Source: an uncultured Candidatus Bathyarchaeia archaeon
GTDB lineage: Archaea; Thermoproteota; Bathyarchaeia; Bathyarchaeales; Bathyarchaeaceae
NCBI GenBank assembly: GCA_964510635.1
Contig: CAZEBS010000008.1
Span: forward strand, 30,331 to 94,330
DNA length: 64,000 nucleotides
Direction: 5' to 3'
Shown here one piece after another: positions 12,033-63,265 of this stretch. Made by a program: the position numbers and the translations under genes. Every line of letters begins with the position of its first letter. The first letter of the stretch is position 1. Under the pieces are notes generated by a model that was not told the DNA's origin, ran no database searches, and saw only the letters and a program-made list of their open reading frames with translations.

Positions 12033-13709
12033 TTAACTTTGTTTTGTGCTCCTCACCTTTTCCAGTTTGGCTTGAAGCTCTTCCTCGGATTCATCTATTT
12101 TGCTGAAAAGAGGCTTCGCCTTGCTTATCTTGTGGGCTGGCGGCAGCTCCTTTTCTGTTTCGCTCCAATTTTGCTCATGAACAGAACCTTCCAGATTGAG
12201 GAGCGTCCAAAGCTTCTCGCAGGTAAAGGGAATGAAAGGCTCCAGAATTATCGCCAACTGCTTGACAATCTGAGCAGCAACATACAGGGTATTGGCTGAC
12301 TGCTGACGGTCTGTTTTTATGGTTTTCCAGGGCTCCTTTTCGTTGAAGTATCTGTTTCCAAGGTGGGCAAGGCTTATGGCGATGCGCAGAGCCTCCTGTA
12401 ATTTGAAGGCTTCCATCCGCTCTGCAGTCTTGTTCACAATTTCTTTAGCCTCCAGAAGAATTGCCTTATCTTTTTCGTCCAAGCTGCTTGGCTGGGGCAC
12501 TGTGCTGTCGAATTGTCTGTTTATGAAGGTTAATGTTCTGTGAACGAAGTTGCCGAGGGTGTCGTTTAGGTCGCTGTTCACTTTTTCGATTAAGGTTGTC
12601 CATGAAAAGTTGGTGTCCTTCACTTCAGGGCGTATAGACATTAGGGAGTATCTCCAGTAGTCTGCCGGAAAGAGTTCCAGAGCCTCATCGATCCAGACTC
12701 CGATCCTTCGGCTCTTGGAGAAGGCTTGACCATCAAACATCAGAAACTCTGTGGAGTGCACGGTCCAAGGCAAATTGTAGTCTTCGTGGGTGGCTAGCAG
12801 GAGGGCTGGCAGTATGATTGTGTGGAAGGGAATGTTGTCCTTTCCTATGAAATACAGGGTCTTCGCTTCTTTGTTGAACCAGAATTCCTTCCACCGCTCC
12901 TCCTCTCCAAGCCGCTTAAAGTACTGAATAGTGGCTGACGGGTAACCTAGAACGGCGTCAACCCAAACATAGATTGTCTTGTCCTCAGAACCTGGAAAGG
13001 GTGACTGAATCCCCCACTTGTTATCGCGGGTCACGGGTCTAGGCTTCAAGCCCTCCTTTAGAATGTTCAGGGTGAAGTTTCGGGCGTTGTCAGGCAAATT
13101 CTCGTTATTCTGAATGTAATTAGTAAGCTTCTCGGTTAGTTTCGGCAAATCAAAATACCAATGCTTCCTTGTCTCTTTGATTGGCGCCGAATTACATATT
13201 GCACACCGAGGCTCCAAAAGATTCGTGGGCTCAAGAAGGCTTCCACAAGAATCACACTGGTCTCCCCGGGCACTATCATATCCACAGCTGGGACAAGTTC
13301 CCTCCACGAACCTGTCAGGCAAGAAACGGTCACACTTTGGACAGTAAAGCTGCTCAGTTTCTTGAGTGAAGATGTAGCCGTTTTCGTAGATTTTCATCAA
13401 CAGGTTCCGAACAAACGCCTTATGCACAGGGTTTTCTGTGCGGGTGTAGTTGCTGAAGGCTATTCCCCATCTTTCGAAGAGGTCTGACACTTGTGCGTGG
13501 TTTCTGTCTGTCAGCTGTTTTGGGGGAATGTTCAAGCGGACAGCTTCTATTTCGATGGGTGTTCCATGCTCGTCTGAGCCTGTGACGTACACAACTTCGT
13601 TTCCTTGTAGTCGATAATAGCGGGCTACAACATCCGCTGAAAGGATGGAGCTTACAATATTGCCTAGATGAGGAACATAGTTGATGTAAGGCCACGCTGA
13701 AGTGACCAA
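12033..13709 (-). CDS. metG: methionine--tRNA ligase
   Basis: It has a HIGH-type motif (PHLGN), the zinc knuckles CPKCDRF...CPSCGY and CDSCG...CAICN, and a KMSKS-like FSKSR. The start is TTG at 13709, with an in-frame stop a few codons upstream. Confidence 0.9.
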   Translation of the reverse strand: MVTSAWPYINYVPHLGNIVSSILSADVVARYYRLQGNEVVYVTGSDEHGTPIEIEAVRLNIPPKQLTDRNHAQVSDLFERWGIAFSNYTRTENPVHKAFVRNLLMKIYENGYIFTQETEQLYCPKCDRFLPDRFVEGTCPSCGYDSARGDQCDSCGSLLEPTNLLEPRCAICNSAPIKETRKHWYFDLPKLTEKLTNYIQNNENLPDNARNFTLNILKEGLKPRPVTRDNKWGIQSPFPGSEDKTIYVWVDAVLGYPSATIQYFKRLGEEERWKEFWFNKEAKTLYFIGKDNIPFHTIILPALLLATHEDYNLPWTVHSTEFLMFDGQAFSKSRRIGVWIDEALELFPADYWRYSLMSIRPEVKDTNFSWTTLIEKVNSDLNDTLGNFVHRTLTFINRQFDSTVPQPSSLDEKDKAILLEAKEIVNKTAERMEAFKLQEALRIAISLAHLGNRYFNEKEPWKTIKTDRQQSANTLYVAAQIVKQLAIILEPFIPFTCEKLWTLLNLEGSVHEQNWSETEKELPPAHKISKAKPLFSKIDESEEELQAKLEKVRSTKQS

Positions 13710-29848: not shown

Positions 29849-30280
29849 GTGGCAGGCGACGAAAAGAGGTTTGGTCATCTAGAAAGGAGGCCAAATTTCG
29901 TTCACATGGCTATTGGCTTAGTTCTAGTGACGAGCGTACTCTCGCTGGATCTTCAGCTGGTCCGTGGACTTGACCCGCCAGCTCTGGTCGCAATCATCCT
30001 CTTCAATTATCTTTTTGTTTTTCTTCTATTCCCACTGGAGGGTCCCTTTTCACGAAAAATATTTCTGCTAATTGTAGGAAACGCTGTAGGCTTTGTTTGG
30101 TACATCATTCAGACATCATTCTTGGATGCTTTTTCCTTCCTGAACACAGAAACCTTCAGGATAATGTTTCTAGTTGCCAAGCCTCTCATCGATTTTGTGT
30201 GGATAGTAGCTGTATGGTCACTTAGCCTGTCGATACTGACATCCTACAAAATTAAAATGGAGGGACTGGAAAAATGTTGA
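29849..30280 (+). CDS. hypothetical 4-TM membrane protein, overlapping the downstream GT2 gene
   Basis: 143 aa and hydrophobic, with a GTG start. Its stop overlaps the GT2 ATG (ATGTTGA). Confidence 0.45.
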   Translation: MAGDEKRFGHLERRPNFVHMAIGLVLVTSVLSLDLQLVRGLDPPALVAIILFNYLFVFLLFPLEGPFSRKIFLLIVGNAVGFVWYIIQTSFLDAFSFLNTETFRIMFLVAKPLIDFVWIVAVWSLSLSILTSYKIKMEGLEKC

Positions 30281-49513: not shown

Positions 49514-49630
49514 AGCGGTCTCCGCCGAAAATAATCTTGGGTGAGCTTCGAGGCTGCCGTTGTCGTTGAGTTATGCTATGTATTTTGGATTAACAATTCT
49601 GAAATAGGTTTTTTGAAAATACTTTTTCTC

Positions 49631-50635
49631 ATGAACAACAAAATGGACGCCTATTTTCTTCTTATCGTAATTGGCGTCGCAATTGGAGCGATTGCCTTAA
49701 TCTACTATAATCCGTTTGCATTGACCATTGGAGAGGGAAGACGTTGGGGGTTTTATGTTGAAAGTGTTAGTTGGGACAATGACACAGGTCAAATCAAAGC
49801 ATATGTTATGAATTTTGACAAATTTGATGTTACCATAAGTCAGGTTTACGTCAATGGAACATTGGATGACAATTATGTAATTGTTCCGTCAGTTTTACAG
49901 GGAGGTCAAACAGCTGAAATCACCCTATCTGAAACATACTCAAGAATGCCAAAAGAGGTAACAATTGAACTCGTTGCCGATGATGGTTACAATCCCAGAA
50001 TTCGTAAGACGTTTATCGAATTCGAAATGTTAGGGTTATACTGGGACGAGGAATGGGGTAAAATCAAAGTTGTTGTAGACTGCTATTGCGATTATCCAGA
50101 AATCGCTTTTGGTGAAATATACGTCAACGGAACATTAGATGAAGAAGTTGTTATAACTAAACAATTCTATACTGATGACCCACGAGCTTATTATTACCCT
50201 CGATATGACATATATCTGTCTGGAACATACGAAAACAAACCCACATACACGGAGCTAAGAATCATACCCGTAAACGGACATCCCTTTGATTTTGCGGTGC
50301 CCTTCCCTCAGCAGGAAAACCATCATTACTGTGCTCCTATTATTCACTCCTTTTGGTTCGATGAGAGCATTGGTCAAATCAAAGTTCTTGCGCGGTTTTA
50401 TGATACAAATATTCAGAGAGGAGCATTTACTTATGGTGACATATACGTCAATGGGACATTGGATGATGCAGCAATCATTTATCCAAGAGAAGAGCCCTTT
50501 TATGAAATAGTCCTCTCAAGAGTATATGAAGAAGTGCCTTCGCAGATAACCATCAAACTCATTACTCATTATGGAGAATTTAATGAAATAGCTACAGATG
50601 AATTGGAGGTCCGCTCTGGAAACAATTCCCCATAA
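49631..50635 (+). CDS. N-terminally anchored protein with three internal (V/I)YVNGTLD(D/E) repeat domains, unknown family
   Basis: The track ORF starts at 49541, but the ATG at 49631 gives MNNKMDAYFLLIVIGVAIGAIALIY, matching the start of the paralogue. There are three modules of about 100 aa, each with GQIK(A/V)...(V/I)YVNGTLD(D/E)..(V/I)I. Confidence 0.65.
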   Translation: MNNKMDAYFLLIVIGVAIGAIALIYYNPFALTIGEGRRWGFYVESVSWDNDTGQIKAYVMNFDKFDVTISQVYVNGTLDDNYVIVPSVLQGGQTAEITLSETYSRMPKEVTIELVADDGYNPRIRKTFIEFEMLGLYWDEEWGKIKVVVDCYCDYPEIAFGEIYVNGTLDEEVVITKQFYTDDPRAYYYPRYDIYLSGTYENKPTYTELRIIPVNGHPFDFAVPFPQQENHHYCAPIIHSFWFDESIGQIKVLARFYDTNIQRGAFTYGDIYVNGTLDDAAIIYPREEPFYEIVLSRVYEEVPSQITIKLITHYGEFNEIATDELEVRSGNNSP

Positions 50636-50765: not shown

Positions 50766-51761
50766 ATGTTCCTGAAACGAAGATTAGCCATAAATATTAT
50801 TGTAATATTGGTAGTGGTCGTAATAGTTGCGTTTTCTGCAATCTTCATGTATAGTATGTCATCACCTTTTACTATAGGAGAGGGAAGGCATTGGGGGTTG
50901 TATTTTGAAAGTGTTAATTGGGACAATAACACAGGTCAAATCAAAGCATATATTGTGAATGCAGACGAAAAGGATGCTACCATAAGTCAGGTTTACGTCA
51001 ATGGAACATTAGATGACAATTATGTAATTGTTCCCCAAGTTTTAAAGCAATATCAAACAACTGAAATCATTCTATCTGAAACATACTCAATCATGCCTAA
51101 AGAGGTAACAATTGAACTCAATACCAATGATGGCTACCCCACTGGAATTTGTAAGAAATTTATCGACTTCGAAATGTTAGGGTTTTACTGGGACGAGGAA
51201 TGGGGTAAAATCAAAGTTGTTGTAAGCTGCAAATGCGATTATCCAGAAATCGCTTTTGGTGAAATATACGTCAACGGAACATTGGATGATGAAGTTGTTA
51301 TAACTAAACAATTTTATACTGATGAACCACGATATGACATGTATCTTTCTGGAACATACGAAGACAAGCCCACAAACATGGAAATAAATATTGTATCCGT
51401 AAACGGATATTCCTTTGAATTGAGTGCACCTTTCTATATTGGCAACTTTATTCGCAGTTTTTGGTTGGACGAAAACATTGGTCAACTCAAAGTTCTTGTG
51501 TATTTACATGGGGCGAATGTTGTCGAAGGAGAATTTACTTTTGGCGAGATATACGTCAACGGAACTTTGGCTGATGCAGCAACCATTTATGCATACGAAT
51601 CTGATTATTACGGGTATAGCGACATGTACGTAATAACCTTATCAAAAGTTTATGTAAATGTGCCCTCACAGGTAACCATCAAAGTCATTACACACTTTGG
51701 AGCATTTGATGAAGTAGGTACTGAAGAGTTGTGGGTACGCTCTGGAAACAATTCCCCATAA
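50766..51761 (+). CDS. paralogue of 49631..50635 (a tandem duplicate)
   Basis: It has the same three-module architecture and long identical nucleotide runs. The last codons plus the 3' flank are identical in the two copies (50612-50679 and 51738-51805, 68 nt). Confidence 0.65.
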   Translation: MFLKRRLAINIIVILVVVVIVAFSAIFMYSMSSPFTIGEGRHWGLYFESVNWDNNTGQIKAYIVNADEKDATISQVYVNGTLDDNYVIVPQVLKQYQTTEIILSETYSIMPKEVTIELNTNDGYPTGICKKFIDFEMLGFYWDEEWGKIKVVVSCKCDYPEIAFGEIYVNGTLDDEVVITKQFYTDEPRYDMYLSGTYEDKPTNMEINIVSVNGYSFELSAPFYIGNFIRSFWLDENIGQLKVLVYLHGANVVEGEFTFGEIYVNGTLADAATIYAYESDYYGYSDMYVITLSKVYVNVPSQVTIKVITHFGAFDEVGTEELWVRSGNNSP

Positions 51762-55439: not shown

Positions 55440-55971
55440 CTGAATCGCCTATTAAAGGAACAAGCTCTTCGTGGAGCCTTATAATTCGATCTATGGCAGG
55501 ATGGTTCTCGCCTAGTTCTCTGGAAAACTTGTCTAATGTCTTTACTATGGGCACCACCCTGCATCCCTCAATCAGCTTGTCAGCGTAGGTCACAAGCTTT
55601 TCTTCCAGAGTTGTTGGAAGATAATCCTTCACTGGCCAACCAAGCTCTTTTGCTTCTTCAGCGGTTATGCCCCCGCCAATATGACGCCCAATAATAGACA
55701 CGACAGATTCAGGCAAATCCAGGGACTGGGCAATTTCCACGCCAGCAATCGAGTGATTTATGCCATGAGTTTTCGAGCGCCCAATATCATGAAGAAGAGC
55801 GCCAACCTCAACCAGCTCAACATCAACATTCGATCCTCTCTTTTTGCAGGATTCAGCAAACTTCACAGCAAGAGCAGAAACCGCCTTACAATGGGCAATG
55901 ACCTTTTCTGAGCATCCACATTCAGAAAGAAGGGTTAAAGCCTTCTGGGCTGAGGGCAGTTTCTCATTCAC
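55417..55971 (-). CDS. HD/HDIG-domain phosphohydrolase
   Basis: It has H...LLHDIGR...H motifs and overlaps both neighbouring genes. Confidence 0.75.
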   Translation of the reverse strand: MNEKLPSAQKALTLLSECGCSEKVIAHCKAVSALAVKFAESCKKRGSNVDVELVEVGALLHDIGRSKTHGINHSIAGVEIAQSLDLPESVVSIIGRHIGGGITAEEAKELGWPVKDYLPTTLEEKLVTYADKLIEGCRVVPIVKTLDKFSRELGENHPAIDRIIRLHEELVPLIGDSDADSHNP

Positions 55972-56494
55972 CTAATTCCTTCCTCAGCGCCTCAACTCGT
56001 TCCTGTAAGGACGTTTTCAGTTTCTCATTATCAAAATGCATCAATAGTTTGTTGCATCTGGGGCAACGAAAAACAAGTTCCATAGCTTCTTCAAAGGGAA
56101 TACGCTTGCAGCCCTCTGTGCCGCAGTAGTAAAAGTCATGGTTTTGCTCATATGTGAGGCGTGTTTCCAGCTTTTCTAGAACACGCCGCTTCTGGTTCAA
56201 GATGAAGCCTGCAAGCTGGTCAAGCTGGAGTCTCCAGTGGAAGATAAACCATCCAGTGGTTTTGTCTCGTGACCGTCTTAGGCCGACTAATGAATGGTCG
56301 TAGAGTTTGTAGAGGATTTTGCGGACGGTGTTGAGTCGTATCTCTGTTTGCTGTGCAATCTCATCGTCTGTGGTTTCGCCTACTCCTCTGAGGACATTGA
56401 CGATTTGAACTGCCTCTTCGCCGCCGAAAGCTTCAGCAACCTTTTGTAAAGTTTTATCATCCACGAAAGTCAACATCGAAATCCTATACTCCAA
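55964..56494 (-). CDS. tfe: transcription factor E, alpha subunit (TFE/TFIIE-alpha homologue)
   Basis: It has a winged helix (TDDEIAQQTEIRLNTVRKILYKLYDHSLV...GWFIFHWRL) followed by a zinc ribbon (CGTEGC...CPRCN). Confidence 0.85.
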   Translation of the reverse strand: MEYRISMLTFVDDKTLQKVAEAFGGEEAVQIVNVLRGVGETTDDEIAQQTEIRLNTVRKILYKLYDHSLVGLRRSRDKTTGWFIFHWRLQLDQLAGFILNQKRRVLEKLETRLTYEQNHDFYYCGTEGCKRIPFEEAMELVFRCPRCNKLLMHFDNEKLKTSLQERVEALRKELGE

Positions 56495-56551: not shown

Positions 56552-57097
56552 TTAGGCTTCAACGACTTTTTTGCCTCTGACCTGAGGTACTATCTTCATT
56601 TTCGCGTTGCCAGCAAAATCCTTTGAAAGCTCCTGTCCCTCAAAATAGCGGTCAAGAAAAACTGCCAAGCTGGAGCATTCTGAGTGGGGCTGGTTTCCCA
56701 CGGCAACATTGAAGTCTGAAACGGATTCGTTGTAGAAATCAGGGGGCACTTTTTGGCTGCCCACAATAACCATCACATCCTTCTTTGTTTCTCTTATTCT
56801 TTTCATGACGTCGCTTGTTTGGATGTTTTCTCCATACGCGGTGAGGTGGACGGTAACCCCATTGTTTGCTTTCCATTCCTTGACTACACGCTTCCAGGGT
56901 TTTCCCATCTCGAAACTGAAGTTGCCTCCCCACCGTTCCATAACCCTTTCGAGGGTTTCTTTGACTTTAGTGTCCTTTATGTCTGCCATTATGAAGCCGG
57001 AAGCGCCTAAGGCACGGGCAGTCAATGCCACATGTGAGGTTAACCGTTGGTCTCTGTGCCTGTGTCCCCATCTCAGAATAACAACTTTAGGCTTCAC
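56552..57097 (-). CDS. trm56: tRNA (cytidine56-2'-O)-methyltransferase aTrm56
   Basis: The segment VVILRWGHRHRDQRLTSHVALTARALGASG is typical of aTrm56 (SPOUT family). The track ORF was trimmed to the GTG at 57097, because the 25-aa extension overlaps the end of HflX. Confidence 0.75.
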   Translation of the reverse strand: MKPKVVILRWGHRHRDQRLTSHVALTARALGASGFIMADIKDTKVKETLERVMERWGGNFSFEMGKPWKRVVKEWKANNGVTVHLTAYGENIQTSDVMKRIRETKKDVMVIVGSQKVPPDFYNESVSDFNVAVGNQPHSECSSLAVFLDRYFEGQELSKDFAGNAKMKIVPQVRGKKVVEA

Positions 57098-58862
57098 GGT
57101 TAAATTCTCCTCCCAGCTTTTCCACGCGCCCCTGAACCCTGTCCGCCAACCAAGGAATCGCCCTGAAAACACCCTTCACAAACTCCCCCTCATATTCTAT
57201 GTTCTGGACGTGGGCACGCTCAAACAGCTGCGAAACCAATGCCATGGATTCATTACTGATTTTCACGGAAAACGATGCCTCCACAAAACTTTCGAGGTAT
57301 CTTACAATCTGTTGCTTCAACACATCTATGTTGGTTCCATGTAATGCTGAAATTTGAACAGGATTTGGTGCATGCTCCTTCAGTAACTCGGTTTTGCGTT
57401 GTAGTTCGTCTTTTTCGAGCATGTCGATTTTGTTGAGTACCGTTACTATGGGTATTCCTGTTGCTCCAATCTGTTCGATGGTGTCCAGGCTGCAAGAGAG
57501 CTTCCGTTCAATGTCCTCGTCTGGTTCATTCATGTCAACAACCAAAATAATTACGTCTGAAAGGATGGTTTCTTCAAGGGTGGAGTGGAAGGCTTTGACC
57601 AACTTTAGGGGCAGACGGTCAATGAAGCCAACAGTGTCAGTCAACAAAACCTTTCTTTTATTAAACTCCACAGCCCGGGTTGTCGTGGAAAGAGTGGTAA
57701 AGACTGCATCGTCAACAGGAACCGTTTCTTCAGTAAGCAAATTAAACAGTGAACTTTTACCCGCGTTAGTGTAACCCGCCAAAGAAACCGAAACAAAACC
57801 CAGAACATCCCTTCGGGTCCGATGCAGCTGCCTTTCCTCACGCTTCTTTTTCAGTTTTCCTTCGATGGCAGTGATTCGTCGCTTCACAGCCTCAAAATAA
57901 ACATCAACTTCATACTTGCCTAACCCCATAAAGCCGGGCTGTTCCTCCATCCTAGCCAGCTTCACACGCTCCTTTGCCCTAGACAACTCATACCTGAGGC
58001 TAGCTAACTGAATCTGAAGCTCTGCCTCGTATGTTGAGGCTCGCTTGGAAAAGATTTCAAGTATGAGCTGGAAGCGGTCGATAGCCATTACTCCTGTGGC
58101 TTTAGCCAGATTGTAGGCTTGAAACGGCGTCAGCGTGTTGTCGAAAATAACCTTCTCGGAGCCAGTTTCTTTCACCAAATCGGCTAGTTCCCTTACTTTT
58201 CCTCGTCCAATCTGGTACCTAGGATCCCGTTTTCTGATTTGCTCAATGGAACCTACCGCAGTGTATCCTGCTGCCGCGGTGAGGCTCCTGAGTTCATCTA
58301 GGCTTGAAGGCTCTGACGATAGCCGCCGCTGGACGATGATTGCCTTCGTTACTTCTTTGCCTCCCTTGTCCCTCACCTTAAACTGAATAAGGTCTCCTAA
58401 GGTTGTTCCACGGGGTTTAGATGACAAAGCAGGCTGAACTTTAGGCTCCTGAGCAGGCACACGAAGCTTAATCTTCAGTGCATGCTCCAGCTTTTCTGCA
58501 AGAGCCAGATCAGGAATCATTTTGCCGCTTTCAATCTTGCGTATAACCGAAACTTTCTCCCGAATCTTTCTACCCAAGTCCTCATGGCTCATTTCCAACT
58601 CTCGTCTAGCCTTTCTCACTCGTTGACCAAGGTCGCTTGCAAGCTCTAAGCTTTCAGTCACTGTAGGCATCTGCTGTCTCTTCGAGTAAGAAATTGGTGT
58701 TGCCTGACGTTTTGTTACCCTTCTTGTGCGGGGCTGAGGTTTGGGTTCCCAGTAACCAGAACTTAACTTTCCACATTTCGAGCAGACAGTCATCTTGGCT
58801 CCTTCAATTATCGCCCTGACTGGGGTGCCAAATATTTGACGACCACATACTTCACATTGCAT
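57087..58862 (-). CDS. hflX: fusion protein: aMBF1 (zinc ribbon plus XRE-type HTH) N-terminus joined to HflX GTPase
   Basis: Residues 1 to about 150 are MQCEVCGRQIFG...VCSKCG plus the HTH MSHEDLGRKIREKVSVIRKIESGKMIPDLALAEKLEHAL. The rest is the HflX N-domain (IGRGKVRELADLV, AELQIQLASLRYEL) and the G domain (GYTNAGKSSLFN, DTVGFI, NKID). Confidence 0.85.
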   Translation of the reverse strand: MQCEVCGRQIFGTPVRAIIEGAKMTVCSKCGKLSSGYWEPKPQPRTRRVTKRQATPISYSKRQQMPTVTESLELASDLGQRVRKARRELEMSHEDLGRKIREKVSVIRKIESGKMIPDLALAEKLEHALKIKLRVPAQEPKVQPALSSKPRGTTLGDLIQFKVRDKGGKEVTKAIIVQRRLSSEPSSLDELRSLTAAAGYTAVGSIEQIRKRDPRYQIGRGKVRELADLVKETGSEKVIFDNTLTPFQAYNLAKATGVMAIDRFQLILEIFSKRASTYEAELQIQLASLRYELSRAKERVKLARMEEQPGFMGLGKYEVDVYFEAVKRRITAIEGKLKKKREERQLHRTRRDVLGFVSVSLAGYTNAGKSSLFNLLTEETVPVDDAVFTTLSTTTRAVEFNKRKVLLTDTVGFIDRLPLKLVKAFHSTLEETILSDVIILVVDMNEPDEDIERKLSCSLDTIEQIGATGIPIVTVLNKIDMLEKDELQRKTELLKEHAPNPVQISALHGTNIDVLKQQIVRYLESFVEASFSVKISNESMALVSQLFERAHVQNIEYEGEFVKGVFRAIPWLADRVQGRVEKLGGEFNREA

Positions 58863-59398: not shown

Positions 59399-60724
59399 AT
59401 GGTTAAGCTGCACATAGGATTCGACGATACTGATTCACCAAACGGAGGATGCACCACCCACATAGCCGCCCTCCTCGTCGAAAAATTATGCAACATGAAT
59501 GTCTTCTTCACAGATTACCCCAACCTAGTCAGGCTTAACCCAAATGTTCCATGGAAAACCCGAGGCAACGGAGCCCTCTGCCTCCGAATAGAATGCCATG
59601 AAGACACCGTAGACGCCATCAAGGAAACAGTCCTAGATACAGTCGAAGCAAACTCTGACCTAGGTTACAGCGGAACCGACCCCGGCGTTGTCTTCCTTTT
59701 AGGGGATGTTCCCAAGCAAGTCAGGGAATTCGCCAAAGAAGCTGAGCAGCGGATAATGAAAATTGATGATGCCTTGAGCCTTGTTAAGGGAGTTGGCGCT
59801 GAGGCTGTGGGATTCAAGAAGAGGAGAGGGCTCATCGGAGGCTTAGCCGCAATCGGCGAGGAAATGAAGGGAGACCACACCTTCGAAATCATAAGTTACA
59901 GGATGGCAGAAAATCGTGGCAAACCGCGCCGCGTAAACCCTCAATCCGTCAAAGCTATGGACACAAAATCTAATGATACATTCAATAACGTAGACCCTGA
60001 AACGGGGAGAATCCTGATTACACCCAGAGGACCTGACCCCATCCTTTGCGGAATCAGAGGCGAAACCCCTGAGGCAGTTAAACATGCGTATAATTTGGTT
60101 CTCAAGGAGGAACCTGTTGAAAGATGGATGATTTTCCGAACAAATCAAGGAACGGATGCTCACCTACGGCGCGTCAGTGCAGTTAAGGATGTACAGCCCT
60201 ACAACCCCGTCGTTGCCGAGGGGCAGATATCCAAGGAACCACGGGTAATCCAAGGTGGCCACGTCATCTTTTCCATCAAAGATGATACCGGAGAGGTGGC
60301 TTGTGCTGTCTATGCGCCCACAGGAGATCTCTGTAAAACAGCAAGAAAACTTGTGGTAGGAGATATGGTGAAGGTCTTCGGAGGTGTCCGTTCCCCTTCT
60401 TCAAAACTTCAGTTGACTATCAATGTGGAGAAGCTGATGATCCAAAAGTTGGTTCCCCGAACAACGGTTGTTAATCCTGTTTGTCCTGAATGCGGGAAAA
60501 GAATGAAGTCTATGGGAAAGAATCAGGGTTTCAGGTGCGACAAGTGCGGCTTCCGTTCCTCTCAGCTACAGAAGCTGGAAGTCAAGGAAGAGCGTGGAGT
60601 TGATGTGGGACTTTACATTACGTCGCCAAGGTCTCAGAGGCATCTGACCAAGCCCCATTGCCGATACGGAAAAGAAAAAACTGGTGCCCCCCAAGAGCTG
60701 ATAGCCGGCTGGCATTCTCCTTGA
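59399..60724 (+). CDS. tiaS: tRNA(Ile2) 2-agmatinylcytidine synthetase TiaS
   Basis: It has the N-terminal motif IGFDDTDSPNGGCTTH, an OB-fold region, and the C-terminal zinc ribbon CPECGKRM...CDKCG. Confidence 0.85.
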   Translation: MVKLHIGFDDTDSPNGGCTTHIAALLVEKLCNMNVFFTDYPNLVRLNPNVPWKTRGNGALCLRIECHEDTVDAIKETVLDTVEANSDLGYSGTDPGVVFLLGDVPKQVREFAKEAEQRIMKIDDALSLVKGVGAEAVGFKKRRGLIGGLAAIGEEMKGDHTFEIISYRMAENRGKPRRVNPQSVKAMDTKSNDTFNNVDPETGRILITPRGPDPILCGIRGETPEAVKHAYNLVLKEEPVERWMIFRTNQGTDAHLRRVSAVKDVQPYNPVVAEGQISKEPRVIQGGHVIFSIKDDTGEVACAVYAPTGDLCKTARKLVVGDMVKVFGGVRSPSSKLQLTINVEKLMIQKLVPRTTVVNPVCPECGKRMKSMGKNQGFRCDKCGFRSSQLQKLEVKEERGVDVGLYITSPRSQRHLTKPHCRYGKEKTGAPQELIAGWHSP

Positions 60725-62324: not shown

Positions 62325-62444
62325 TGGTGCGGGGGACGGGATTCGAACCCGTGGAGGCCTGCGCCAGAGGATCTTAAGTCCTCCCCCTTCTCCTAGGGGA
62401 TCTGATATTGACCCGCTATTTAGACCTGGCTCGGGTACCCCCGC
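62325..62444 (-). tRNA. tRNA-Leu (anticodon TAA) with an insertion (intron) of about 32 nt in the D-loop region, CCA encoded
   Basis: The reverse complement (120 nt) is gcgggggta ccc gagccaggtctaa [atagcgggtcaatatcagatcccctaggagaa] ggg g gagga cTTAAga tcctc tggcgcaggcctcc acggg ttcgaat cccgt cccccgc a cca. The anticodon loop is intact, and the extra sequence lies 5' of the anticodon stem. Confidence 0.75.
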
Positions 62445-62557
62445 CATCCTTCAATATTCACAGGCACCTTCGACATAAATGTTACCTGACCATCCCCTCC
62501 TTTTGGCGTTAGGGTTATAACAGTCAACATGCAAGAAATGTTTTGGCGGAAAAATCT

Positions 62558-62702
62558 GGGCGGGTATAGAATGCTGCTGTAGCGTTCTACCGAAGCCTAG
62601 CTTGGACAGGGCACGAACAGCACAAAATGCTGGTGTATGCCTCCTAACAGGGAACTGGGAGTGAGCTCGGGGTCACGGGTTCGAGTCCCGTCCCGCCCGC
62701 CA
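62558..62702 (+). tRNA. tRNA-Arg (anticodon CCT) with three introns (62567-62594, 62617-62638, 62647-62663), CCA encoded
   Basis: The acceptor gggcggg (62558-64) pairs with cccgccc (62692-98), and the T-arm is acggg-ttcgagt-cccgt. Removing the three segments yields a 75-nt cloverleaf: gggcggg ta gcct agcttggaca gggc a cgagc ctCCTaa gctcg gggtc acggg ttcgagt cccgt cccgccc g. Each intron can be drawn as helix / 3-nt bulge / 4-bp helix / 3-nt bulge / helix, with both cuts after the second bulge base. Confidence 0.75.
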
Positions 62703-62767: not shown

Positions 62768-63265
62768 TTATTTTAGTTTAATGCTTAGCCAGCCTCTTCC
62801 GCCTCTTTTCTGTTGCTGACTCTTCTTTGGAGTCTTTTTGGGCGGAACATATCGGCTAGCTCTGGTTGCGGTTTTCTGGTTGCGTATGTTAGTCCGGATG
62901 AATTTGCCCCATCCGCCTATGGTCGAATTCGGAGGAATGACCTTTTCTGTGTCAAGCTCAAGGTACTCTTTCACGATGTCAAAGAATTCGAGGGGTTTGA
63001 AGTCTCTTGTTGCCATAATCACTGTTCCTTGTTCGACAAACAGTTTTGAATAGTCGTGTTTGGCTATGCCCTCTGCTCTCACTTTGTCTTCTACCCTATT
63101 TCGCCAAAGGTTTTTCCAGTCGGTTCTTAATTCGTCAACGAATTCTTTCATGTTGGTTGTTGCCAGTTTTTGTTCCTCCTTGCACCTGCAGAGCCAGCTT
63201 CTTTGGGCTTCTTTTTGGTGCGCGGTTTCTTTGCTGCTCTTTATTTTTCGGTTATATAAAGACAT
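62768..63265 (-). CDS. hypothetical basic protein
   Basis: A 165-aa ORF with a Lys/Arg-rich C-terminus. The internal ATG at 63151 (MKEFVDELRTDW) is an alternative start. Confidence 0.4.
   Translation of the reverse strand: MSLYNRKIKSSKETAHQKEAQRSWLCRCKEEQKLATTNMKEFVDELRTDWKNLWRNRVEDKVRAEGIAKHDYSKLFVEQGTVIMATRDFKPLEFFDIVKEYLELDTEKVIPPNSTIGGWGKFIRTNIRNQKTATRASRYVPPKKTPKKSQQQKRGGRGWLSIKLK

Follow-up and report, generated by a model that had tools for sequence, protein, structure and literature searches.

A tRNA-Arg(CCU) gene very probably interrupted by three bulge-helix-bulge introns in a Bathyarchaeia archaeon

In archaeal tRNA splicing, EndA cuts the two bulges of the motif termed bulge-helix-bulge (BHB), and the exons are joined by RtcB. 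It is established that an archaeal tRNA gene can carry as many as three BHB introns, mostly in Thermoproteales but in Thaumarchaeota as well (PMC8450103, PMC4033280, PMC3218864), and it has already been described for multi-intron tRNAs that one intron must leave before the next motif can form (PMC8450103). Non-canonical introns are cut only by (alpha-beta)2 and epsilon2 EndA with a specificity loop (PMC5829648), and relaxed motifs are known substrates of broad-specificity EndA (PMC4033280). A long-standing idea holds that tRNA genes are shielded by their introns against integrating elements (Randau and Soll, as cited in PMC3293823). Here we describe a tRNA-Arg(CCU) gene at positions 62558-62702 (145 nt) of a 64,000-nt stretch of DNA from an uncultured Candidatus Bathyarchaeia archaeon. 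The whole stretch is called the window, and all coordinates below refer to it, on the + strand unless stated otherwise. The locus is very probably a functional gene of a Bathyarchaeia archaeon near Ca. Bathyarchaeum, with three short BHB introns at tRNA positions 9/10, 29/30 and 37/38.

The sequence agrees base for base with its description in an earlier note, which had proposed a triple-intron tRNA-Arg at this place. The gene starts with GGGCGGG and ends with CCCGCCC, followed by the discriminator G and an encoded CCA; the T-arm is of the textbook form (ACGGG-UUCGAGU-CCCGU), and together with the acceptor it was also recovered by an independent scan. The three introns (Table 1) sum up to 67 nt, and their deletion leaves 78 nt, or 75 nt without CCA, which ARAGORN identifies as tRNA-Arg(cct) with an error-free cloverleaf, every stem pair being intact and A20 present. 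The mature length of 75 nt, the restored anticodon stem CGAGC/GCUCG and the loop CUCCUAA are as the earlier note had them. Applied to the unspliced locus, both ARAGORN (intron mode on or off) and Rfam (gathering and E-value thresholds) report a T-arm fragment only; both call three ordinary tRNAs elsewhere in the window. The gene is missed because of the limits of these tools, and the missing call is not evidence against it. tRNAscan-SE 2.0 may already detect such genes routinely.

The exon boundaries are supported by natural alleles. Exon 4, used as a pattern, matched ten species-representative genomes, all of which carry insertions at the same three places; nine of them are labeled Bathyarchaeia, Bathyarchaeota or Bathyarchaeum, and one "Thermoproteota archaeon". 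The closest relative is a Ca. Bathyarchaeum sp. metagenome-assembled genome (MAG), 87.9% identical over 6.8 kb. A gapped pattern that allowed 0-30 nt at sites 1 and 2 matched at least 120 metagenome loci. Among the matches listed, 132 copies were parsed (the window gene and 131 related ones, from genomes and metagenomes) and assigned to classes, the three digits of which state whether introns 1, 2 and 3 are there: 73 copies are 111, seven 110, nine 100, two 010 and 31 are 000, ten more being truncated or partial. In the copies listed, the exon sequence at every junction is the same with or without an intron, and therefore the natural alleles represent the "spliced" forms. The mature window sequence is identical to an intron-less allele in 72 of 78 positions (92%), the differences being confined to loops and the pair 49:65. 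Alleles without introns reach 63.9 bits with the Rfam tRNA model (RF00005), and the allele with intron 2 alone reaches 44.6 bits; an intron-1-only allele yields a partial match, and genes with two or three introns do not score. The proposal of three introns at these junctions is thus corroborated both by the ARAGORN call and by alleles that lack the insertions at the same junctions, and the expectation that tRNA-finding tools would recognize the gene once the introns are removed also held.

These alleles bear directly on the possibility that the tRNA match is a chance product of freely chosen deletions. ARAGORN is permissive, as 332 of 1889 single deletions of the neighbouring tRNA-Leu gene gave some tRNA call; still, the exons of tRNA-Arg(CCU) occur uninterrupted in nature with the high Rfam score given above, which effectively refutes this explanation. 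The BHB geometry described below, with a frequency of ~1e-5, would have to arise three times, and the T-arm and acceptor come from an independent scan. We consider the probability of such an artifact negligible.

The alleles provide a clean natural series, in which the same tRNA has 0, 1, 2 or 3 introns at fixed junctions. The earlier note had regarded the triple-intron state, described there for a few archaeal lineages such as Thermoproteales, as a taxonomic marker; it does not mark Thermoproteales, as the relatives with informative labels are all Bathyarchaeia and the number of introns varies from 0 to 3 within the group. Therefore the triple-intron state marks at most a subclade.

The canonical intron is usually expected to be the ancestral one. 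Among the copies listed, the canonical 37/38 intron is observed only in genes that already have introns 1 and 2, which is the opposite of this expectation, and classes 001, 101 and 011 are absent from the 132 copies listed.

Plain minimum free energy (MFE) folding of the pre-tRNA reproduces neither BHB1 nor BHB3, and therefore the BHB geometry was scored directly. For cuts after nucleotides a and b, the central helix is formed by a-5..a-2 with b-5..b-2, the bulges are a-1..a+1 and b-1..b+1, and the score consists of the number of central pairs (out of 4), the inner-helix run and the outer-helix run. BHB1 scores 3, 9 and 5, with one mismatch (G7.A32): its central helix is CGG(G)/(A)CCG, the bulges are UAU and AAG, and the inner hairpin of 7 bp is AGAAUGC/GCGUUCU. 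BHB2 scores 4, 5 and 3; AGG/CCU is its outer helix, GCAC/GUGU the central one and CAGCA/UGCUG the inner hairpin, with GAA and AUG as bulges. For BHB3 the score in the primary transcript is 4, 3 and 2, the central helix being CUCC/GGAG and the inner one CAG/CUG, closed by the GGAA loop, with UAA and UGA as bulges; the outer helix here is the anticodon stem, and it grows to 5 bp after the removal of intron 2. Hence every helix and bulge listed in the earlier note, as well as the BHB1 mismatch, is present, and in all three motifs both cuts fall after the second bulge nucleotide. Introns 2 and 3 have the full central helix, and intron 1 has the relaxed form.

A geometry this good or better occurs with the frequency of ~1.0-1.2e-5 per site pair for each intron, as estimated from 6.26 million candidate pairs on both window strands. 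Junctions 8/9 and 38/39, the sole alternatives that would leave the mature RNA unchanged, score 2, 0 and 0. As it is the tRNA exons that independently set the junctions, chance does not explain the triple coincidence.

Covariation was analyzed in 64 distinct three-intron sequences. In BHB1 and BHB2 taken together, 93.7% of cells are paired, and eight pairs show two-sided changes, in 90 cells; this covariation score was reached by none of 500 shuffles, and sliding the partner by 1-3 columns decreases the paired fraction to 36-47%. In particular, the inner helix of intron 1 is paired in 97% of cells, with two-sided changes in five of its seven pairs. The central helix of BHB2 is paired in 99.6%, and three of the five inner-helix pairs of intron 2 show two-sided changes. 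Without an input structure, RNAalifold arrives at the hairpin of intron 1 and, for BHB2, at the central and inner helices separated by the GAA bulge. Judging from the alignment, the inner helices of introns 1 and 2 are maintained by compensatory changes.

Changes in the central helices are one-sided and pair-preserving, e.g. G54:U79 to G:C in nine sequences, and C to U opposite G5 or G6. Likewise, the one-sided variants ACUGAA and AUCGAA at the 3' end of intron 1 still form G.U pairs to exon 1. In BHB3, pairing of the central helix amounts to 93% over the 64 sequences. In one subfamily, intron 3 has a length of 12-13 nt, a C.A mismatch and no inner helix, being of the relaxed form. The G+C content of the exons is 70.5%, and they are invariant, while the introns are variable, with 41-59% G+C; the genome has 44%. 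Thermophily, which might be read from a tRNA of ~70% G+C in such a genome, was dropped, with nothing supporting it.

This pattern of conservation is hard to reconcile with a decaying or disrupted pseudogene, in which the insertions, as junk or relics of mobile DNA, would not be removed at all and tRNA-Arg(CCU) would come from a different gene. Standard tRNA finders giving no call would fit such a pseudogene, as would the integrating elements that target this tRNA in relatives (see below), and the visible part of the genome is 64 kb. On the other hand, the exons are invariant over all 64 distinct sequences while the introns vary, the intron helices show compensatory changes, the BHB geometry is precise at all three junctions, the promoter and leader blocks are conserved, and the arrangement is retained in ten species. 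We therefore regard a pseudogene as very unlikely.

Table 1. Features of the three-intron tRNA-Arg(CCU) gene and its upstream region in the window
Feature	Position	Strand	Remarks
TATA-like box TTATAA	62515..62520	+	In conserved block GGCGTTAGGGTTATAACAG, 38 nt before the mature 5' end
Leader GGCGG	62545..62549	+	Part-copy of the 5' acceptor strand; complementary to CCGCC at 62693-62697
Leader CU at -2/-1	62556..62557	+	Lengthens the outer helix of BHB1 to 5 bp (CUGGG/CCUAG)
Exon 1, tRNA positions 1-9 (GGGCGGGUA)	62558..62566	+	Invariant in all copies, partly because the search pattern demanded it
Intron 1, 28 nt, non-canonical 9/10	62567..62594	+	Relaxed BHB; 000 and 010 alleles in nature lack it at the exact junction
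Exon 2, positions 10-29 (D-arm, position 26, nt 1-3 of the anticodon stem)	62595..62616	+	ARAGORN; includes A20
Intron 2, 22 nt, non-canonical 29/30	62617..62638	+	Full hBHBh'; missing at the junction in 000 and 100 alleles
Exon 3, positions 30-37	62639..62646	+	Anticodon CCU at 62643-62645
Intron 3, 17 nt, canonical 37/38	62647..62663	+	Missing at the junction in 110, 100, 010 and 000 alleles
Exon 4, positions 38-76 (3' strand of the anticodon stem, variable loop, T-arm, 3' acceptor strand, discriminator G, CCA)	62664..62702	+	CCA at 62700-62702

The upstream region contains two elements of interest. The TTATAA box would be the promoter of tRNA-Arg(CCU); the block that contains it is conserved upstream of three-intron orthologues. 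The second element, a leader, is associated with intron 1. Among the copies listed, the GGCGG or GGGCG motif precedes all 77 non-redundant genes with intron 1, compared to two of 25 genes without it, and CT at positions -2/-1 is found in 75 of 79 and 3 of 25 genes, respectively (Fisher p 7e-21 for the association of the leader with intron 1, ignoring shared ancestry). The GGCGG(G) motif is situated ~8 nt upstream of CU, with an A-rich spacer between them, and spans three clades whose upstream regions otherwise differ. Two loci, L034 and L035, lack intron 1 and keep a decaying copy of the leader, their upstream region being as in the intron-1-only clade; this suggests that they have lost intron 1 recently and precisely. 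A leader that copies the acceptor strand is absent from all 71 further tRNA genes in the DNA analyzed, and none of these 71 has a 5'-proximal intron, so the leader cannot be generalized to other tRNAs.

In the MFE structure of the window transcript with the leader included, GGCGG pairs with the 3' acceptor strand. Across orthologues this pairing is uneven, being predicted in 8/8, 4/5 and 7/64 sequences, the last figure referring to three-intron orthologues. It is reasonable but unproven that the leader acts as a clamp on the 3' acceptor strand while exon 1 sits in BHB1; given the inconsistent MFE support across orthologues, the clamp stays hypothetical.

The three motifs compete for nucleotides with each other and with the acceptor stem. 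BHB1 occupies G1-G7, that is, the 5' acceptor strand; the outer helix of BHB2 (A21-G23 with C31-U33) and the central helix of BHB3 (C32-C35 with GGAG) overlap at C32-U33; and the outer helix of BHB3 is divided by intron 2. Therefore no single conformer can contain all three motifs, a point absent from the earlier note, and splicing has to be stepwise, probably sequential. In folding of nascent 5' segments, a BHB1-like domain appears first, followed by a BHB2-like domain.

One order of events is attractive. Transcription probably begins near 62545. As the RNA emerges, the leader and exon 1 would form BHB1 together with the D-stem strand and the end of intron 1, and the leader GGCGG may keep the 3' acceptor strand occupied for as long as exon 1 takes part in BHB1. 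BHB2 would form second, and BHB3 third, acquiring its complete outer helix once intron 2 is gone. EndA would cut each intron in the two 3-nt bulges flanking a 4-bp helix, and an RtcB-type ligase would join the exons to give the 75-nt tRNA with the encoded CCA. Such a 5'-to-3' order is plausible and is possibly co-transcriptional.

The enzyme that would cut these introns was sought among 28 open reading frames (ORFs) of the window, and no EndA was found among them. In 20 related loci (L011:2261-2836, L010, L080, L002, L097, L045 and 14 others) the orthologous tRNA is followed 2.7-9.2 kb further downstream by an EndA gene, which is on the other strand; by synteny, the EndA gene of the source genome would lie ~2-4 kb past the end of the window (beyond 64000). 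The EndA of relatives contains PF01974 and PF02778 and matches TIGR00324 with 84.9 bits (the cut-off being 59.6). It consists of a single unit, and its best match in PDB is the alpha4-type enzyme of M. jannaschii (1A79, E = 4e-27), relative to which one residue is inserted and one deleted, with no specificity-loop or crenarchaeal-type insertion. The equivalents of Tyr115 and Lys156 are kept in all 20 proteins, while the equivalent of His125 is Thr in 19 and Pro in one. No second EndA paralogue was found in the 860 kb of DNA examined. This was an unexpected outcome of the EndA check proposed in the earlier note. This protein may be the structural partner of a separate catalytic subunit, or an atypical enzyme.

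One may speculate that Bathyarchaeia process non-canonical multi-intron pre-tRNAs with a single-unit, alpha4-like EndA that has Thr for His and no loop insertion, and that the RNA compensates for it through the intron-1-specific leader GGCGG...CU, which would clamp the acceptor, extend the outer helix and present a near-canonical BHB. We consider this scenario unlikely as it stands. If it is true, the single-unit EndA with the leader contradicts the rule that limits non-canonical cleavage to (alpha-beta)2 and epsilon2 enzymes, and compensation by the leader adds an RNA-level route to substrate presentation. The intron-1-specific leader and the atypical EndA are leads to the way in which a BHB in competition with the acceptor stem is presented, and to the enzyme that cuts it.

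Several observations weigh against the reading of the locus as a functional gene with three spliced introns. Only 64 kb of the genome is known, and a second, intact tRNA-Arg(CCU) gene elsewhere is possible. The inner helix of intron 3 is paired in 41.8% of cells and is not conserved family-wide. No central or outer helix varies in its exonic strand, and so two-sided covariation is not seen in these helices. The EndA encoded next to the tRNA in relatives, a candidate for the enzyme that cuts these sites, has neither the canonical catalytic His nor the specificity-loop insertion. The association of the leader with intron 1 is not corrected for shared ancestry, and the leader:acceptor pairing is predicted by MFE in just seven of the 64 three-intron orthologues. 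The remaining points concern BHB1: its central helix contains the G.A mismatch, which is invariant, and MFE folding prefers another register (U8-A32, G7-C33, G6-C34), which covariation cannot rule out.

The last two points may be taken to mean that the gene is spliced, with intron 1 in a different register or a relaxed motif, either the one preferred by MFE folding of the leader and pre-tRNA (3 bp, G6-U8/A32-C34, with a 2-nt and a 3-nt bulge) or the one with the junction at 8/9; in either case the mature tRNA would not change. In formal terms the junction is ambiguous, since an A is repeated there, and relaxed motifs are known to be cut (PMC4033280). Nevertheless, only the 9/10 junction gives two 3-nt bulges, 4 positions apart, with cuts after the second bulge nucleotide, and the poor score of the 8/9 junction has been given above. 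Moreover, the first intron nucleotide may be T, A, G or C, as expected of the unpaired third nucleotide of a bulge. We thus hold a different register to be quite unlikely, and prefer splicing at 9/10.

Copies of the tRNA in relatives are also associated with integrating elements. At six loci (L056:61, L079:2125, L118:2977, L127 (position 1437, - strand), L128:11 and L129) tRNA-Arg(CCU) is represented by a 5' half that stops in the anticodon loop. At five of these six loci the 5' half continues in frame into an ORF; two such ORFs of ~300 aa were tested, and both encode an archaeal integrase (PF16795; E = 1e-6 and 4e-10). The reading frame of the integrase in L118 passes through a copy of intron 2. 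Two of the loci, L079 and L128, also hold a complete intron-less copy of tRNA-Arg(CCU), 2.3 or 7.3 kb downstream. Judging from these sequences, tRNA-Arg(CCU) is an integration (attachment) site in the relatives.

Half-copies with intron 1 are located behind the host-type promoter and leader of intron-1-only genes, while the complete copy has a different upstream region; therefore integration has swapped the intron-bearing half for an intron-less one. Among the tRNA-Arg genes listed, no half-copies lie beside the 80 genes with two or three introns, compared to six beside the 42 genes with one or none (p ~0.002-0.007, the samples not being independent). The half-copies make the idea of protection by introns testable within one lineage.

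The next tRNA gene, divergent from tRNA-Arg, is tRNA-Leu(UAA) at 62325-62444 (- strand; 120 nt including CCA), which was also missed by ARAGORN and Rfam. Its D-loop contains an insertion of ~32 nt (ATAGCGGGUCAAUAUCAGAUCCCCUAGGAGAA), the junction of which is ambiguous over an AA repeat. An attempt to locate the intron by ARAGORN-guided single deletions was uninformative, given the many tRNA calls mentioned above, and therefore it was placed by inspection of the D-arm. The BHB here is relaxed, with 3 central, 3 inner and 0 outer pairs. The insertion persists in 27 distinct sequences with the same synteny, and in more distant relatives the anticodon loop is followed by a second one. In total, the window contains four introns in five tRNA genes, and two of the five (Arg-CCU and Leu-UAA) are invisible to ARAGORN and Rfam; therefore Bathyarchaeia MAGs annotated with these tools seem to lack tRNAs that are actually present.

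Other window genes related to tRNA encode aTrm56 (tRNA 2'-O-methyltransferase; 56552-57172, - strand), TiaS (agmatidine synthase for tRNA-Ile2; 59399-60724, + strand) and MetRS (12033-13709, - strand). TFE-alpha is encoded at 55964-56494. No Pfam match was found at E <= 0.01 for the ORFs at 49541-50635, 50766-51761 and 29849-30280 (all on the + strand), or at E <= 0.001 for the ORF at 62768-63265 (- strand), directly downstream of tRNA-Arg. A search for contigs encoding the neighbouring radical-SAM gene yielded a single 1.9-kb contig. In a relative, a contig with an intron-1-only tRNA-Arg(CCU) also contains a match to Rfam PYLIS_3, the mttB pyrrolysine insertion element (L013:1646-1745, - strand; 56.2 bits), which hints at a pyrrolysine-containing methyltransferase in that relative.

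Compared with known systems, the window gene is a further example of a known uncommon layout, in a different lineage. Within the literature searched, there was no paper that links Bathyarchaeia or Bathyarchaeota with multi-intron tRNAs, although this by itself does not prove novelty. The closest described systems are the multi-intron tRNAs of Thermoproteales (Pyrobaculum, Thermofilum, Caldivirga), found with SPLITS and tRNAscan-SE 2.0. As in the window gene, there are up to three short BHB introns, at the canonical 37/38 and at non-canonical sites, the close-set introns need ordered removal, and ordinary finders miss the genes (PMC8450103, PMC4033280, PMC3218864). The differences are the lineage, which here is Bathyarchaeia, the leader tied to the 9/10 intron, and the EndA of relatives, which has no crenarchaeal-type loop insertion. 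Thaumarchaeota (Nitrososphaeria) are similar in being a TACK lineage outside Crenarchaeota with many non-canonical BHB introns, for which a clade-specific model is needed (PMC8450103).

The proposed role of the leader resembles what has been suggested for split and permuted tRNAs (Nanoarchaeum, Caldivirga, Aeropyrum), where flanking non-tRNA sequence is proposed to pair and thereby to present the BHB to EndA (PMC3218864, PMC4090602). Unlike these, the window gene is contiguous, and it is the leader, not a separate transcript, that might, as a hypothesis, pair with the 3' acceptor strand and with A14-G15. Finally, tRNA-Thr(GGU) of Caldiarchaeum subterraneum (Sugahara et al. 2012, PMC3293823) shares with the Bathyarchaeia loci both population variants that differ in introns and a tRNA fragment found together with a recombinase/integrase. 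In Bathyarchaeia, unlike Caldiarchaeum, the integrase ORF reads through the 5' half of the tRNA, as in the SSV type (PF16795), and it is observed in relatives of the window genome, not in the window itself. Taken together, the two cases suggest that integration of mobile elements changes the intron state of tRNA genes.

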